DNA from: an uncultured Chloroflexia bacterium
Lineage (GTDB): Bacteria; Chloroflexota; Anaerolineae; Anaerolineales; UBA4823
Length of the DNA stretch: 64,000 nucleotides
NCBI GenBank assembly: GCA_963792075.1
Contig: CAWBUW010000002.1
Location: 466,850 to 530,849, forward strand
Direction of reading: 5' to 3'
Position 1 is the stretch's first letter. Each line of letters opens with the position of its first letter. The position numbers and the translations under genes were made by a program. Below, one piece after another: positions 4,618 through 60,618 of this stretch. Below the pieces are notes generated by a model. The model ran no database searches. It had not been told where the DNA came from and saw nothing but the letters and a program-made list of their open reading frames with translations.

Positions 4618-4660
4618 TTGGTAGAGTGTGCGGCAGTGAAACTGCTGCACACTCTACCAA
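4618..4660 (+). repeat. 19-bp hairpin, TTGGTAG-GTGTG type
   Basis: TTGGTAGAGTGTGCGGCAG tgaaa CTGCTGCACACTCTACCAA (one G-T). Starts 2 nt after the E2 stop. Its outer stem matches that of the 1294-1338 hairpin. Confidence 0.9.
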
Positions 4661-6969: not shown

Positions 6970-8106
6970 TTATAGATCTTGAACGGTGGCAGCCTGGCGC
7001 TGTGCGAAGAAAGCCGCCGCGTATAGGTCGAGTGTGCCATCCAACACAGCCTGGCGCAGCTCGCGCGCGATCTGCAACAGCGTGTGCAGGTTGTGGATGG
7101 AGAGCAGCGTAGCCGAAAGCATCTCTTTGGCTGCGATCAGGTGGCGCAGGTATGCCCGAGAAAAATGTTGGCAGGTGTAGCAGGTGCAGGCAGAGTCAAT
7201 CGGCTGGGGATCCTGCGCATAGGCGGCATTGACTAAGTTGATCCGCCCGGTGCGCGTCATCGCCGCGTTATGGCGTGCCAGCCGGGTGGGCAGCACACAA
7301 TCGAAGATGTCCACGCCGCGCAGCACACCCTGCACCAGGTCTTCAGGGGTACCCACTCCCATCAAGTAGCGTGGGCGGTCTTCTGGCAGAATCCGATCCA
7401 CCAACTCCAGCGTGGCATACATTTCTTCTTTTGACTCGCCCACCGACAGCCCGCCAATGGCGCTGCCCGGCAAGTTTTGTGCTGCCACGAACTCGGCCGA
7501 GCGCTGGCGCAGGTCGGGGAAGATACCGCCTTGTACGATGCCAAAGAGCGCCTGGTCGGAACTTTGTTTGGCGCGCTGGCAGCGTTCGAGCCAGGCGTGG
7601 GTGCGCAGCATGGCGCGTTCGGAGTACACCCGGTCGAGGGGCGAGGCGCACTCATCGAAGGCCATGATGATATCTGCCCCCAGGTTCTCCTGGATGGCGA
7701 TGGCTTTTTCAGGCGTAAAGCGGTGCAGCGAGCCATCCGTGTGGCTTTTAAAAGTCACGCCATCCTCATCAATTTTGCGCGCATCCGCCAGCGAAAAAAC
7801 CTGGAAGCCGCCCGAATCGGTCAGCATGGGCCGGTCCCATTGCATAAAGCGGTGCAGACCGCCCATTTCAGCTACCAGCTCATCGCCGGGACGCAAATAG
7901 AGATGGTATGTATTCGATAGGACCAGCGTGGCGCCCAACTCGTGCAGTTGGGCGGGGGTGATCGATTTCACGGTAGCCTGGGTGCCGACCGGTGCGAAAA
8001 CGGGGGTGGGCAGCGGTCCGTGCGGTGTATGGAACACGCCCGCACGGGCTCGCCCCTGGCGGGCATGCAGTTCGAAGGAAAAAGGAGGTAAATTACTTAT
8101 ACTCAT
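6970..8106 (-). CDS. tgt: queuine tRNA-ribosyltransferase
   Basis: 378 aa with LTDSGGFQV and a C-terminal CxCxxC zinc motif. Confidence 0.93.
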   Translation of the reverse strand: MSISNLPPFSFELHARQGRARAGVFHTPHGPLPTPVFAPVGTQATVKSITPAQLHELGATLVLSNTYHLYLRPGDELVAEMGGLHRFMQWDRPMLTDSGGFQVFSLADARKIDEDGVTFKSHTDGSLHRFTPEKAIAIQENLGADIIMAFDECASPLDRVYSERAMLRTHAWLERCQRAKQSSDQALFGIVQGGIFPDLRQRSAEFVAAQNLPGSAIGGLSVGESKEEMYATLELVDRILPEDRPRYLMGVGTPEDLVQGVLRGVDIFDCVLPTRLARHNAAMTRTGRINLVNAAYAQDPQPIDSACTCYTCQHFSRAYLRHLIAAKEMLSATLLSIHNLHTLLQIARELRQAVLDGTLDLYAAAFFAQRQAATVQDL

Positions 8107-8114
8107 GGGGACAA

Positions 8115-8120
8115 ATTATA
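8115..8120 (-). promoter_or_regulatory. candidate -10 box for a leaderless tgt mRNA
   Basis: TATAAT on the minus strand, 8 nt upstream of the tgt ATG, with no Shine-Dalgarno. Confidence 0.35.
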
Positions 8121-8156
8121 CCTTTGGAGGGGGATATTGGGTTGTGTATGTGTATC

Positions 8157-8265
8157 GGTTCATTGGGAGTTGCCGTAACAAAGGGCAATTGTGGGGGTAT
8201 TTTGCGGGCTTTGCCCGCAAAATACCCCCACAAAACCGCCCTATCATGGCGATTCCCAGAGAGCC
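8157..8265 (+). mobile_element. MITE-like palindromic element, family 1, copy A (109 bp)
   Basis: Termini GGTTCATTGGGAGTTGCCGT ... ATGGCGATTCCCAGAGAGCC. Flanked by identical TGTGTATC at 8149-8156 and 8266-8273. Nested rod-like hairpin. Confidence 0.7.
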
Positions 8266-8424
8266 TGTGTATCCATTATCAATCCATGGGGTTTCTATTG
8301 AAAGGAATTGGCCTACAATTAAGAGGGCCGATCCATATTTCACATTTGAGAAGGCCTTCAAAATTCAGCCAAACGGCTGCGGGGTCGAGAAGGCCATAAT
8401 TTCTTTTTTTCGACGGAGGAAAAC

Positions 8425-8595
8425 ATGAAACTCAGTACACCTAAAAACATTACGTTCTGGATCGCAGTAGCACTTGCAGCCCTAGGGTTGCTTGCCAGTT
8501 TAGTCACGATCCCGGTGCTATCCCCCCTTGCCTTCTGGCTGGTGGTGGTCGGTTTCGTCGTTTTGGCATTGGGCAACCTCCTAGAAGGTTTCTAA
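8425..8595 (+). CDS. small two-TM membrane protein (56 aa), absent from the ORF track
   Basis: GGAGGA lies 5 nt before the ATG. MKLSTPKNITFWIAVALAALGLL...VVVGFVVLALGNLLEGF. Followed by a terminator. Confidence 0.45.
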   Translation: MKLSTPKNITFWIAVALAALGLLASLVTIPVLSPLAFWLVVVGFVVLALGNLLEGF

Positions 8596-8670
8596 TAAAG
8601 ATGTTGAAGGTACAAGCGGGCGCTGCTGAGACCTCGCAGTGACGCCTGCTCATCCCTTCAACTTACGGTT

Positions 8671-8710
8671 GAAGCGGGCATACCTGCCAGGTGTGCCCGC
8701 TTCTGTTTTA
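8671..8710 (+). terminator. intrinsic terminator
   Basis: 10-bp stem GAAGCGGGCA/TGCCCGCTTC, then TGTTTTA. Confidence 0.7.
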
Positions 8711-8712
8711 GT

Positions 8713-8803
8713 GGGAGCACTCAAAAGTTGTTGTAAAAGGGGGTTGTGTGCGGGCGGCGTAAGCCGTCCGCACACAACCCCCTAACAACCTTTTAGTGCA
8801 TCC
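8713..8803 (+). mobile_element. MITE-like palindromic element, family 2 (91 bp)
   Basis: Termini GGGAGCACTCAAAAG / CTTTTAGTGCATCC. 20-bp core stem at 8739-8782. Flanked by GTTTTAGT at 8705-8712 and 8804-8811. Confidence 0.6.
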
Positions 8804-8953
8804 GTTTTAGTAGGGGGGCTGGTGTTTCCCCTCAATTCTGAGATATAATCTTATTCCCGGAAGCCTACATTAAACAACTAAGATCAGCCTGCAGGATCAA
8901 GCGCTTCCGGGATGTTCCCTTTATCCTGCGGGGTTTTAAGAAGGAGAGGATTT

Positions 8954-10279
8954 ATGGAACCGATGAACCTGCCCGGCCCGAAGGCCCAGGCGCTTATTCA
9001 GCGCAGCAAAGCTGTCATTTCCCCGTCTTATGCGCGCGCTTACCCCTTTGTGATGGACCACGGGAAGGGTAGTTACGTGTGGGATGTGGATGGACACCAA
9101 TTCCTGGACTTTGCAGCCGGAATCGCGGTCAATTCGACCGGGCATTCCCATCCGAAAGTGGTGCAGGCAATCAAGGATCAATCAGAAAAATTCCTACACA
9201 TTTCCGCAGATTTTTACCACGAACCGTGGATCAAACTGGGCGAGATGCTGGATAATTCAGCGCCTTTCAAAGAAGACGCGGTTTCCTTTATGACCAATTC
9301 TGGCACCGAGAGTGTCGAAGCCGCAATCAAGCTCGCTCGCTTCAACACAGGCGCCGGCCAGTTCATTGGCTTCCTGGGCGCATTTCACGGGCGCACCCTG
9401 GGCTCGCTGACCTTTACCGCCAGTAAGCCGCACTATCGGGAAGGTTTCTACCCAATGATGGGCGGCGTGGTACACGTCCCTTACCCCAACGCATACCGCC
9501 CATTACTGTGCTCCCGCCCTGGTGAAGATTACGGCGAGGTAGTTGTGCGTTATATTGAGCAGCAGGTGTTTAGCCAGATCCTGCCACATCAGGAAGTAGC
9601 TGGCATTTTGGTAGAGACGATACAAGGGGAGGGTGGATATATTGTTCCTACACCTGGTTTCTACCCTGCGCTGCGCGAGCTGTGCAACCGGTTAGATATT
9701 TTGTTGATTGTAGACGAAGTGCAGTGCGGTATGGGACGTACCGGTAAAATGTGGGCGATTGAACATTTCGGCGTGGAGCCGGATATCGTCTGCTCGGGGA
9801 AAGGGATTGCCTCGGGCTTGCCCTTAGGCGCCATGATTGCCCGCAAGAGCATCGCCACCTGGCCGGCTGGCTCGCATGGTAACACATATGGTGGGAACCC
9901 CATCGCCAGCGTAGCCGCCATTGAGACGATTAACCTGATCCAGAACGAATACCTGGCCAACGCCACAGAAGTGGGGTCCTTTGCCCTGGGTGAGCTGCGC
10001 GAGATGCAGGCACGCCATCCATCGATTGGCGATGTGCGCGGCATTGGCTTGATGATTGGCGTGGAATTTGTCATGGATCGCGAGACCAAAGAACCTGGAC
10101 ACGACCTGGCTGAGCGTGTGTCCAATGAAGCTTTCCGGCGTGGCCTGCTTACCTTGACCTGTGGCAAGAGCTCTATTCGCATTTCACCTCCGCTGAACCT
10201 CAGCCGGCAGGAAATGGCTGACGGCCTCAAATTATTCGATGAGGCAATCAGCATCGCCGAAAAGGCTTATAACCTGTAA
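8954..10279 (+). CDS. class III PLP aminotransferase (4-aminobutyrate/ornithine aminotransferase-like)
   Basis: DEVQCGMGRTGKMWA motif. AAGGAGAGG lies before the ATG at 8954; the ORF track starts at 8912. Confidence 0.85.
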   Translation: MEPMNLPGPKAQALIQRSKAVISPSYARAYPFVMDHGKGSYVWDVDGHQFLDFAAGIAVNSTGHSHPKVVQAIKDQSEKFLHISADFYHEPWIKLGEMLDNSAPFKEDAVSFMTNSGTESVEAAIKLARFNTGAGQFIGFLGAFHGRTLGSLTFTASKPHYREGFYPMMGGVVHVPYPNAYRPLLCSRPGEDYGEVVVRYIEQQVFSQILPHQEVAGILVETIQGEGGYIVPTPGFYPALRELCNRLDILLIVDEVQCGMGRTGKMWAIEHFGVEPDIVCSGKGIASGLPLGAMIARKSIATWPAGSHGNTYGGNPIASVAAIETINLIQNEYLANATEVGSFALGELREMQARHPSIGDVRGIGLMIGVEFVMDRETKEPGHDLAERVSNEAFRRGLLTLTCGKSSIRISPPLNLSRQEMADGLKLFDEAISIAEKAYNL

Positions 10280-13238: not shown

Positions 13239-13296
13239 ATGCACACCTGTGATGTTGCTGCCGCGCACCAACATCACAGGTGTGCATTTATTTTTA
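13239..13296. terminator. bidirectional intrinsic terminator between convergent genes
   Basis: 19-bp perfect stem ATGCACACCTGTGATGTTG/CAACATCACAGGTGTGCAT, with TTATTTTTAAT downstream and an A-rich tract upstream. Confidence 0.7.
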
Positions 13297-21977: not shown

Positions 21978-22118
21978 GGTTCATTAGGAGTTGCCGTGCA
22001 GAGCTTGCTTAATCGAAAGCCCTGCGTTCCACACCCCTCCCCCCAACTTTAAGAAAACCCTGAGTTGCCGTGACGAAGGGCTATATATGCCCTCTTCCAC
22101 GGCAATTCCTGGAGAGTC
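21978..22118 (+). mobile_element. family 1 element, 141-bp variant (copy C)
   Basis: Starts GGTTCATTAGGAGTTGCCGTG and ends CACGGCAATTCCTGGAGAGTC. The interior differs from copies A/B and contains CCCCTCCCCCC. No clear flanking duplication. Confidence 0.55.
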
Positions 22119-22139
22119 TCGTAAAAGCTGCGATTTAGG

Positions 22140-23036
22140 TTAAATCATTTTTATGATGATGCCGGCCAATACGAGAAGAATGAACGTGCTTACCGAGATC
22201 GCAAGTGCGATCATTTGGTGGCGAGGGAGCAGGCCAAGGAATGCTATGGGCCATGAATAGTATCCCATATACGGCGAAAAGAAAGGCCCTCCGAGTATAG
22301 CGCCTTGGCTCTGCCGTTTAACCACCGACCAAACCAGCAAAGGCAAGCCCACTAGTATCGAATAGGGCCAAAACGACAGATTCCATCCAGGAGGATCGTC
22401 TAGGAGTTTGCCGTACTGAAAGAAATAAGGTCCGTAAATTATAGTGGTGGCGAGGAAAAGCAGTGTAACTGGTAAGAAGGTGCTGATGATTCGGCGCATT
22501 CCACCTTCGCGATAAGCCTCAACTAGCCAATAGACAATCAGTCCAATTCCGAGTTGCGGCTTGGTCAGGGAGAAGAAAAGACCGATCTGGGGAGGGAGTA
22601 CATAGCCAATGGCAACCAGCCAGTCGATATTAGGGTTGAGGATATTATGGAATAGGTAGAGAGGGTTTGCTACCATCAATGCTGCCACCAGTAGCGAAGC
22701 GCCCATTTTTTTTGCTACGAGAAAATATGTTACCACAGCTACTGAAGCCAGTATGGCCCGCCCGACATCTGCTGGAAGAAATGCAATCGTAACGAGCGGG
22801 AGTAATGACCAGGGCACCCAGTGGCAGTTTTCTAGATCGTTAGGATTCTTTCCGGTGATTAAATACTGAGCACCGGGTCGGAAACAATTATCCCAATCAT
22901 TGGAGAACTTTTGAGTTTTTCCAAGGTAATATGCCAGTGCAAAAACACAAATGCCCAAGATGATTGTAGGGATAATGTTCTTGTATGACTTGATCGTCTT
23001 CAAAGCAGGGGGTTGATGAATAATAATTTCTGTCAT
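22140..23036 (-). CDS. polytopic membrane protein, GT-C-like putative glycosyltransferase
   Basis: 298 aa with about 8 TM helices. AT-richer than its surroundings. Divergent from a GT2 gene. Confidence 0.6.
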   Translation of the reverse strand: MTEIIIHQPPALKTIKSYKNIIPTIILGICVFALAYYLGKTQKFSNDWDNCFRPGAQYLITGKNPNDLENCHWVPWSLLPLVTIAFLPADVGRAILASVAVVTYFLVAKKMGASLLVAALMVANPLYLFHNILNPNIDWLVAIGYVLPPQIGLFFSLTKPQLGIGLIVYWLVEAYREGGMRRIISTFLPVTLLFLATTIIYGPYFFQYGKLLDDPPGWNLSFWPYSILVGLPLLVWSVVKRQSQGAILGGPFFSPYMGYYSWPIAFLGLLPRHQMIALAISVSTFILLVLAGIIIKMI

Positions 23037-23040
23037 AAAA

Positions 23041-23083
23041 CATCTAATGGGAACTGCCCCATCACGGCAACTCCCAATGAACC
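23041..23083 (-). mobile_element. family 1 element, 43-bp ends-only derivative (copy D)
   Basis: The minus strand reads GGTTCATTGGGAGTTGCCGTGATGGGGCAGTTCCCATTAGATG. Lies 4 nt upstream of the start codon at 23036. Confidence 0.5.
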
Positions 23084-29593: not shown

Positions 29594-29702
29594 GGTTTAT
29601 TGGGAGTTGCCGTGGCAGCGGGCAAATGTGGGGATGTTTTGCGGGCAAAGCCCGCAAAACATCCCCACAGAACCGCTCCATTACGGCGATTCCAAGAGAG
29701 TT
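29594..29702 (+). mobile_element. family 1 element, copy B (109 bp)
   Basis: Same length and termini as copy A. Flanks are ATTCTTTC and ATTTTTTC. Lies in the gap-pgk spacer. Confidence 0.7.
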
Positions 29703-33205: not shown

Positions 33206-34269
33206 ATGAAAAAAGCTTTAATCACAGGTATTACTGGACAGGACGGCTCGTACCTGGCTGAGTTGTTATTGTCCAAAGAGTATGAAGTTCATGGGATGAT
33301 CCGCCGGGCGAGCACCTTCAATACTCGCCGCATTGACCATCTCTACAACGATCCGCATAACAAGGTGAACCTTTATTTGCATTACGGTGACCTGGCCAGC
33401 GGCGGTTCCTTGACCGACATGGTCTATTCGATCCAGCCAGATGAGATTTATAATTTGGCTGCGCAATCTCACGTGCGCGTGAGCTTTGATCTGCCCGATT
33501 ATACGGGAGACATTACCGGCCTGGGCACCATCCGTTTGTTGGAAGCAATACGCAAGAGTGGGATCAAGACCCGTATGTACCAGGCTTCATCCAGCGAGAT
33601 GTTCGGCAGCGCCAGGCCCCCGCAGAGCGAGACGACAGCTTTCGAGCCCCAGAGCCCCTACGCAGCCGCCAAGGTTTATTCCTATTGGGTGACGCGGAAT
33701 TACCGCCAGGGCTATCAGATGTTTGCTTCGAACGGGATTTTATTCAACCACGAGTCCCCCGTCGCGGCGAAACCTTCGTTACCCGGAAAATTACGCGTGC
33801 CCTGGCTGCGATCAAGGCCGGCAAACAGGATTTCCTCTACCTGGGCAACCTGGATTCCAAGCGTGACTGGGGCTACGCACCTGACTATGTGGCAGCCATG
33901 TGGAAGATGATGGAGCAGGATCATGCCGATGATTTTGTCATTGGCACAGGTGAATCGCACTCGATCCGGGAATTCCTGGATGAATCCTTTGGCTACGTGG
34001 ATATGGATTGGCACCAGTATGTGCGCATCGATCCCAAGTACTTCCGCCCAACTGAGGTGGATTATTTGCAGGCAGATCCCGCCAAAGCGCGCCAGAATTT
34101 AGACTGGGAACCGCGCGTTTTCTTCAAAGACCTGGTGCGTATCATGGTGGATGCTGACCTGGAGCTGGAGGGCCTGGAGTCTCCCGGTGAAGGCAAGAAA
34201 CTGTTGGAAGTTCACCATGGCAAATGGCACCGTTGGGACTCACAGGTTGTGAGCATGGAGCGCCCATAA
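33206..34269 (+). pseudogene. gmd: GDP-mannose 4,6-dehydratase, split at a C5 run (possibly a sequencing indel)
   Basis: [12 protein letters not shown]...NHESP in one frame, then [12 protein letters not shown]... in the next. One extra C at 33756-33760 restores it. Confidence 0.85.
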
Positions 34270-34288: not shown

Positions 34289-34330
34289 AGGGGTGCACTA
34301 AAAAGTTGTTGGTATGTGTGTGCGCGGGAA
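34289..34330 (+). repeat. truncated left half of a family 2 element
   Basis: GGGGTGCACTAAAAAGTTGTTGGTATGTGTGTGCGCGGG matches the left arm of 8713-8803 and the 1294 hairpin. No right arm is present. Confidence 0.5.
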
Positions 34331-56369: not shown

Positions 56370-56415
56370 GGGATCAATTTTGCGGTGAATCCGCAAAATT
56401 GATCCCTTTTTATTT
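56370..56415 (+). terminator. intrinsic terminator at a convergent junction
   Basis: 16-bp perfect stem GGGATCAATTTTGCGG/CCGCAAAATTGATCCC, then TTTTTATTT. Confidence 0.7.
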
Positions 56416-56735: not shown

Positions 56736-56782
56736 TTTGGGGTTTATTTTGGGCGGCGGAGCCGCCCAAAATAAACCCCAAA
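56736..56782 (+). repeat. 22-bp perfect hairpin filling an intercistronic gap
   Basis: TTTGGGGTTTATTTTGGGCGGC gga GCCGCCCAAAATAAACCCCAAA. Confidence 0.9.
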
Positions 56783-58662: not shown

Positions 58663-58667
58663 GAGGT

Positions 58668-58710
58668 GGGGTGTTCAAAGGGACGGCTTTGCCGCCCCTT
58701 TGAACACCCC
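58668..58710 (+). repeat. 20-bp hairpin (one mismatch)
   Basis: GGGGTGTTCAAAGGGACGGC ttt GCCGCCCCTTTGAACACCCC. Confidence 0.85.
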
Positions 58711-58733
58711 AAAATATTATCCGAGGGCATCTT

Positions 58734-60579: not shown

Positions 60580-60618
60580 AGGGTTATGTGTTTGTGCACA
60601 GCACAAACACATAACCCT
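60580..60618 (+). repeat. 18-bp perfect hairpin filling an intercistronic gap
   Basis: AGGGTTATGTGTTTGTGC aca GCACAAACACATAACCCT. Lies 2 nt after the upstream stop and 6 nt before the next SD (minus-strand sense). Confidence 0.9.

Follow-up and report, generated by a model that had tools for sequence, protein, structure and literature searches.

A short palindromic element of an uncultured Chloroflexia bacterium, probably a MITE of an ISKra4-family insertion sequence placed upstream of a promoter

Classical bacterial MITEs, such as Correia/CREE of Neisseria, RUP, ERIC and the cyanobacterial Nezha, are short, non-coding elements with terminal inverted repeats, target duplications and strong hairpin potential. 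They are intergenic and able to sit in transcribed regions, as is the element described here, but they stem from other parent IS families and generate duplications of other lengths (TA for Correia), and we know of no classical MITE that lies at a fixed distance from promoters. REP elements and BIMEs, which are associated with RAYT, resemble the present element as extragenic palindromes that are often located after genes. It differs from them in having a target duplication and IS-matched terminal inverted repeats, both of which, to our knowledge, are absent from REP elements. The prokaryotic Mutator-like transposases, as defined by Guerillot et al. 2014 (PMC3942029), are characterized by inverted repeats of 18-39 bp and direct repeats of 8 or 9 bp. 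TnGBS, ISLre2 and several IS of the ISKra4 group insert approximately 16 bp upstream of the -35 element of sigma-A promoters, with IR-right adjoining the promoter where the inverted repeats are asymmetric; for IS256, no promoter-distance signal was reported (PMC3942029). The ISKra4 group (p-MULT 4), whose listed host phyla include Chloroflexi, shares with the family described below G...C termini, inverted repeats within 18-39 bp and direct repeats of 8-9 bp (PMC3942029). The literature that we searched contains no report of MITE derivatives of ISKra4 or ISLre2, or of MITEs in Anaerolineae. Here, we describe a 91-bp palindromic element in a stretch of 64,000 nucleotides from an uncultured Chloroflexia bacterium (the window). 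We consider it likely that this element is a MITE derived from, and moved in trans by, an ISKra4-family IS, and that it was placed by promoter position, its contact with a terminator being incidental.

The element occupies positions 8713-8803 (plus strand) between two copies of the octamer GTTTTAGT, located at 8705-8712 and 8804-8811. In it, a core hairpin is set between an IRL-like and an IRR-like end, an architecture seen in alignments and by nhmmer, where a MITE profile built from other genomes matches 8713-8803 at E = 1e-17. The left terminal inverted repeat (8713-8733, plus strand) reads GGGAGCACTCAAAAGTTGTTG. The right one (8783-8803, minus strand) is IRR-like and reads GGATGCACTAAAAGGTTGTTA as its reverse complement; it retains the IRR-specific ...CCTAACAAC... 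as well as CCTAA, within which the full IS described below have their transposase stop codon. The outer arms of the element form imperfect inverted repeats of 16 nt (8717-8732 and 8784-8799) with 88% complementarity. They enclose a G+C-rich core hairpin (8738-8783) with a conserved pairing, whose 21-nt arms (8738-8758 and 8763-8783) are 95% complementary, with one G-T and a 4-nt loop. The region 8660-8830 has a folding energy of -104.4 kcal/mol, corresponding to z = -10.7 against shuffles. The element is non-coding, as only spurious ORFs overlap it, and the chance of an exact 8-bp flanking repeat is approximately 1.5e-5 per element. The octamer duplication with 91 bp between its copies, and the imperfect inverted termini around a core stem with one G-T, had been described in an earlier note on this DNA and were confirmed in the sequence.

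Within the 64-kb window, the MITE is present as one full and one truncated copy only. The latter, placed near 34289-34330 by the earlier note, was located at 34291-34330 (plus strand) and consists of an intact IRL (GGGTGCACTAAAAAGTTGTTG) and part of the left core arm, without the right end. Its left terminus at 34291-34311 differs at 2 positions, and the window search expects 0 such matches by chance. We regard this copy as truncated because the similarity runs into the left core arm and then ends. Just upstream of it, an NAD-dependent sugar dehydratase/epimerase-like gene (33206-34269), whose product looks like GDP-mannose 4,6-dehydratase, is split into two ORFs that overlap in different frames (33206-33910 and 33685-34269); judging from its sequence, this may be either a frameshift pseudogene or an assembly error.

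When 185,579 species-representative genomes were scanned for exact matches to the pattern GGGNGCACTNAAAAGTTGTTG, the 21-bp terminus was located at 39 loci, of which 36 derive from 14 Chloroflexota MAGs, mostly Anaerolineae/Anaerolineales. The 3 remaining loci lie in a Pseudomonadota MAG, a Ferruginibacter and an actinobacterial MAG; with 19 fixed bases, about as many would arise by chance. Complete copies of 64-168 bp with the same architecture are found at many unrelated loci, and the terminal pairs are conserved across 13 copies. MAG CAZGIX01 has at least 11 terminus loci, divided between two closely related subfamilies; 9 of these loci are complete and closely similar short copies. The core of the window subfamily, GTTGTAAAAGGGGGTTGTGTG, yielded 0 matches in metagenome contigs. 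Direct repeats of 7-9 bp, mostly 8 bp, surround 16 of the 17 short copies examined, as exemplified by ACATAGAA (L014), GATGCAAA (L019), GTCACTTC (L022), CCCCGAAA (L012), (C)TCCTTCCG (L018) and AAGACATA(G) (L034), where the ambiguity in length arises from G/C runs at the element ends. The duplication is therefore reproduced at other copies, and the earlier proposal of a mobile palindromic element that makes 8-bp duplications stands. Two copies in different MAGs (L009 805-884 and L027 5716-5833) carry the near-identical duplicated octamers CCAGATGA and CCAGATGAC in otherwise unrelated surrounding DNA, which may be a coincidence or a weak target preference.

These copies also bear on a reading in which the sequence is not mobile here, but is a conserved structured RNA or a regulatory palindrome belonging to the aminotransferase operon (leader, sRNA or extra terminator), or an element of REP/BIME type handled by a RAYT. 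Such a reading would accommodate the very stable fold, the pairing of the inner stem, which is kept by compensatory, two-sided changes at 9 pairs (13 copies from four genomes), and the similar lone hairpins at gene 3' ends in the window. It is exceedingly improbable in view of the copies beside unrelated genes in many genomes, which have flanking duplications, of a syntenic relative (L043) without the element, and of Rfam, which gave 0 matches at gathering score anywhere in the window.

The termini of the MITE also bound elements of 1,462-1,473 bp in L024, L036 and L039. Each of these full IS comprises one ORF of approximately 450 aa with its stop codon inside the IRR. Their IRL reads GGG[T/A]GCACTAAAAAGTTGTTGG, and their IRR, as reverse complement, reads GGGAGCACTCAAA[A/T]G[G/A/T]TGTTAGG. 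Direct repeats surround two of the three full IS, namely CCGTAAAA/CCATAAAA in L036 and TCCCCTCAA in L039. At L024 (3529-5011), the octamer abutting the right end, ATCTAAAG, recurs 7 nt off the left end without adjoining it, which may mean that the left junction has 7 additional bases or that a secondary event took place. The L024 ORF, the only one scored, reaches 245 bits against NF033572 (NCBIfam, ISKra4 family transposase; cutoff 205), compared with 69 bits against the ISLre2 model (cutoff 200) and a score far below cutoff against the ISH6 model. It is continuous and without a frameshift, which excludes the ISMich2 group. The ORFs of L036 and L039 are 67% and 54% identical to the L024 transposase, of which positions 1-444 and 1-451, respectively, were aligned by tblastn. 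In MAG JAXHUT01, five contig ends stop within the same IS, as would be the case for a repeat present in many copies. The family agrees with the ISKra4 group in that the protein encoded by its autonomous elements, whose termini are identical, exceeds the NF033572 cutoff. The window element differs from the group in its length of 91 bp, in lacking a transposase and in its G+C-rich, perfect hairpin interior, which is lacking in the full IS. With this, an enzyme family can be named for a repeat that recurs in 14 Chloroflexota genomes (mostly Anaerolineae) among those scanned.

A search by tblastn found no ISKra4-type transposase in the 64-kb window, and a duplication of 8 bp is not unique to ISKra4. 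The MITE might instead be moved by another family that generates 8-bp duplications (IS256, ISL3, IS1595 or IS6), its likeness to ISKra4 being due to shared ancestry or coincidence. However, 20-21 of the 21 terminal bases are identical to those of an IS that encodes an ISKra4-family transposase (20/21 between the window IRL and the L039 IRL), and the right end keeps the IRR-specific CCTAA with the transposase stop codon. The promoter-distance signature described below fits the ISKra4 group, while none was reported for IS256 (PMC3942029). We consider mobilization by another family very unlikely and postulate that the cognate ISKra4-family transposase exists or existed in the source genome.

The single full copy visible in the source DNA, with its IRL-like and IRR-like ends both present, could also be the relic of a full IS that inserted at this site and lost its interior, so that the short element itself never transposed. 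The core hairpin, however, is homologous among short copies of different species and absent from the full IS, which implies that the short form predates the window insertion. The 9 complete, similar short copies among the at least 11 terminus loci of one MAG further show that the short form transposes. Decay in place is hence highly improbable, and these comparisons point to an old derivative that transposes on its own, not to a local deletion product.

The target choice of the family was analyzed at 59 junctions between inverted repeat and genome, from the loci and the window, which were read outward with a consensus-weighted -35 / 15-19 / -10 score. The best outward promoter, according to this E. 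coli (not Chloroflexota) consensus model, lies at d = 13-18 in 26 of the 59 junctions, compared to 10.4 expected (p = 2e-6), and the mean promoter score is highest at d = 15-16. Strong promoters at d = 13-17 were found at 9 junctions, whereas random positions of the same loci gave 0.25 on average and never more than 3 in any of 2000 trials; examples are TTGACA-17-TATAAT in L014 (d = 15), TTGACT-17-TATAAT in L037 (d = 16) and TTGACC-17-TACAAT in L035 (d = 16). Sixteen strong promoters face outward and one faces inward. When only -10 hexamers with at least 5/6 matches to TATAAT are considered, 19 of 43 start 37-41 nt out, where 3.6 are expected (p = 3.5e-10). With its -10 at 40 nt, the right junction of the window copy belongs to this cluster. 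In only about 40% of the elements can a promoter be recognised at the distance expected. As a whole, the promoter-distance statistics match the published insertion of ISKra4 and TnGBS upstream of sigma-A promoters. Placement approximately 15-16 bp upstream of a sigma-A -35 is shared by the ISKra4 group and the family, the trait of the group being an insertion about 13-17 bp upstream of the -35; at the window copy, the -35 is weak and the -10 offset fits.

The elements are also oriented with respect to the promoter. By inspection, the IRR-like end faces the -10 in 11 of the 12 short elements that have such a -10. This resembles the TnGBS ICEs and ISLre2 (p-MULT 3), which insert in an oriented manner 15-17 bp upstream of the -35 with IR-right on the promoter side (PMC3942029). 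They differ in belonging to another transposase clade, as indicated by the low ISLre2 model score, and occur mainly in Firmicutes. The promoter-upstream targeting described for ISKra4, ISLre2 and TnGBS thus appears to be kept by non-autonomous derivatives of 60-170 bp. MITE copies could serve as promoter markers in uncultured Chloroflexota, with the -35 approximately 16 nt and the -10 approximately 39 nt past the IRR-like end. For annotation, such palindromes would be neither terminators nor RNA genes.

The earlier note had suggested that the family targets hairpin or terminator contexts. In the full form of this idea, the MITE transposase prefers hairpins or terminator U-tracts, and a second palindromic family in the window, family 1, behaves alike, with one enzyme serving both. 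The window octamer is indeed the U-tract of the terminator hairpin at 8671-8703, L022 lies inside a 15-bp palindrome, L030 and L014 have hairpins within approximately 25-45 nt, and family 1 likewise carries an exact 8-bp duplication, TGTGTATC. When the 50-nt flanks of the 59 junctions were folded, however, their mean MFE was -7.9 kcal/mol, with 3% at or below -15, compared with -11.2 kcal/mol and 23% for random 50-mers of the same loci and -10.1 kcal/mol and 14% for ORF-free 50-mers of the same loci. The window left flank, at -28.6 kcal/mol, is the single strongest of the junction flanks. Hairpin or terminator targeting was rejected on the basis of these flanks, which are less structured than the controls, with the window copy as a lone outlier; the signal is promoter distance. 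That terminators occur only tens of bases from some copies (L014, L030) is expected, because the space upstream of a promoter in compact intergenic DNA is often the end of the previous gene. A hairpin preference with one enzyme for both families is therefore quite unlikely, all the more since the family-1 termini are unrelated and absent from the 40 loci searched.

Family 1 (8157-8265) is flanked by its octamer at 8149-8156 and 8266-8273. Its termini, GGTTCATTGGGAGTTGCCGT and, as reverse complement, GGCTCTCTGGGAATCGCCAT, are unlike those of family 2, the family of the 91-bp element. Further family-1 sites are located at 29594-29700 and, as solo termini, at 21978-21997 (plus strand) and 23064-23083 (minus strand), and the core hairpin of family 1 shows compensatory substitutions between its two full copies. 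The 1.1-kb segment between the inverted solo termini (21978-23083) was considered as a family-1 IS and rejected, as it encodes a membrane protein (298 aa, 22140-23036, minus strand) and no transposase. The enzyme common to both families that the earlier note envisaged did not find support: family-2 termini match an ISKra4-type IS, and for the unrelated family-1 termini no partner was found. A duplication of 8-9 bp is the rule for Mutator-like transposases and several other families, and its length is therefore no proof of a shared enzyme. As both families sit in promoter-bearing spacers, their enzymes may be related. On the minus strand, a TATAAT at 8115-8120 lies 36 nt from the left junction of family 1 and 8 nt before the tgt start codon, an arrangement that suggests a leaderless tgt mRNA.

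Upstream of the 91-bp element, a small ORF (8425-8595) encodes 56 aa with two hydrophobic stretches. It is followed by an intrinsic-terminator hairpin at 8671-8703 (plus strand), which is located outside the mobile element and consists of 15 pairs, 9 of them G-C, with a loop of 3 and the tail TGTTTTAGTG. This hairpin with its tail is the sole terminator-like call within 8000-9500, and the assignment of the left octamer to its U-tract by the earlier note was confirmed. Between the small ORF and the terminator lies a long imperfect hairpin (8603-8662) with 29-nt arms of 72% complementarity. The two hairpins have GTTGAAG..AAGCGGGC in common, an indication that part of the small ORF's 3' UTR was duplicated.

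Downstream of the element, a class-III aminotransferase gene (8954-10279, plus strand; PF00202) is preceded by a putative sigma-A-type promoter at 8820-8849 (plus strand), assigned from its hexamers and their spacing. This promoter comprises a weak -35, either TGGTGT (8820-8825) or GTGTTT (8822-8827), and a perfect -10, TATAAT (8844-8849). The right end of the MITE is separated from the -35 by 16-18 nt and from the -10 by 40 nt, and the start codon at 8954 follows approximately 105 nt downstream of the -10. As the -35 matches at most 2-3 of 6 positions, below the 4/6 of a generic promoter scan, that scan gives no call here. We infer from the hexamers and their position that TATAAT 8844-8849 belongs to a working aminotransferase promoter.

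Comparison with relatives supports this assignment. In L043, UppP-Tgt is followed divergently by the aminotransferase and a GAF/PAS kinase, and the 153-bp spacing between tgt and the aminotransferase gene contains none of the inserts of the window, including the MITE. Here, TTGATT-18-TATAAT lies approximately 120 nt upstream of the aminotransferase start codon, a position that supports 8844-8849 as the aminotransferase promoter. L041 and L043 are syntenic, with approximately 75% amino-acid identity in the aminotransferase, and their intergenic DNA is too diverged to align; the closest relative, P0002/L040, with an amino-acid identity of 85%, lacks synteny on the upstream side. The reconstructed empty site, GCCCGCTTCTGTTTTAGTAGGGGGG, gave 0 exact matches in metagenome contigs. 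In L041 (1990-2300), the spacer between tgt and the aminotransferase gene measures 560 bp and contains a different palindromic element of approximately 100 bp (GTCATTGCGAACCCGG...TCGCAATGAC), along with another copy of GTCATTGC. Across several lineages, small inserts seem to accumulate in this divergent-promoter spacer.

We propose the following course of insertion. The partner IS would encode a prokaryotic Mutator-like DDE transposase (p-MULT 4), which would bind the terminal repeats of approximately 21 bp, GGG[A/T]GCACT.AAAAGTTGTTG, and cut the target with a stagger of 8 bp; gap repair would then duplicate the octamer GTTTTAGT. The target would be selected by promoter position, approximately 15-16 bp upstream of a sigma-A-type -35 and with the IRR-like end promoter-proximal, although the molecular basis of this promoter targeting is itself conjectural. 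At the window locus, the target would be the aminotransferase promoter with its -10 at 8844-8849. The layout before insertion would have been terminator hairpin, UGUUUUAGU, approximately 8 nt and the -35, and the allele would have read ...GCCCGCTTCTGTTTTAGTAGGGGGGCTGG. A cut 16 nt upstream of the -35 would fall into the U-tract because the terminator ends approximately 8 nt upstream of the -35. Since the octamer is duplicated, the hairpin would still be followed by the same nine bases (UGUUUUAGU) after the insertion, so that termination should be unchanged and the upstream terminator unaffected. The upstream terminator and the downstream promoter have probably both remained functional after the insertion.

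The core hairpin of the element has no T-run directly after it and is not called by the terminator scan, which calls only 8671-8703; it is followed by TAACAACC on the plus strand and by TTTTAC on the minus strand. The compensatory changes in the core could have arisen because the hairpin is under selection, or through template switching that corrects palindromes in master copies. A more speculative reading, which we consider unlikely, is that the short elements are mobile hairpin cassettes delivered by the transposase between a terminator and the next promoter, with the core being a captured, insulating host terminator. It is motivated by the perfect pairing of the core and its resemblance to lone hairpins at gene 3' ends. 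Capture could go back to an event in which a terminator came to lie between two IS ends, given that on this reading the IS habitually lands beside terminators. If this were true, the core hairpin would insulate the promoter from read-through.

Lone perfect or near-perfect hairpins with stems of 16-23 bp are located in the window at 1292-1340, 4618-4660, 13239-13287, 56370-56406, 56736-56782, 58667-58711 and 60580-60618. The gene context was checked for those starting at 1292, 56370, 56736 and 60580, and each of these is located at the 3' end of a gene. Several of the hairpins share the apex GGCGGC-NNN-GCCGCC with the MITE core and lack a clear T-run, and similar lone long hairpins with this apex are found at gene 3' ends in other MAGs too. 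The window hairpins may represent unusual terminators or yet another class of repeat. The hairpin at 1292-1340 and its flanks (approximately 1285-1368) follow the pattern AAATA..TTTGG..hairpin..CAAT.TT..GATAGATACT, with TAAATAT on both sides of the hairpin in the window. The same segment aligns with lone hairpins at two loci of an Anaerolineaceae MAG, L027 3882-3956 (minus strand) and L011 7701-7783 (plus strand); this hairpin type may represent a third small repeat family.
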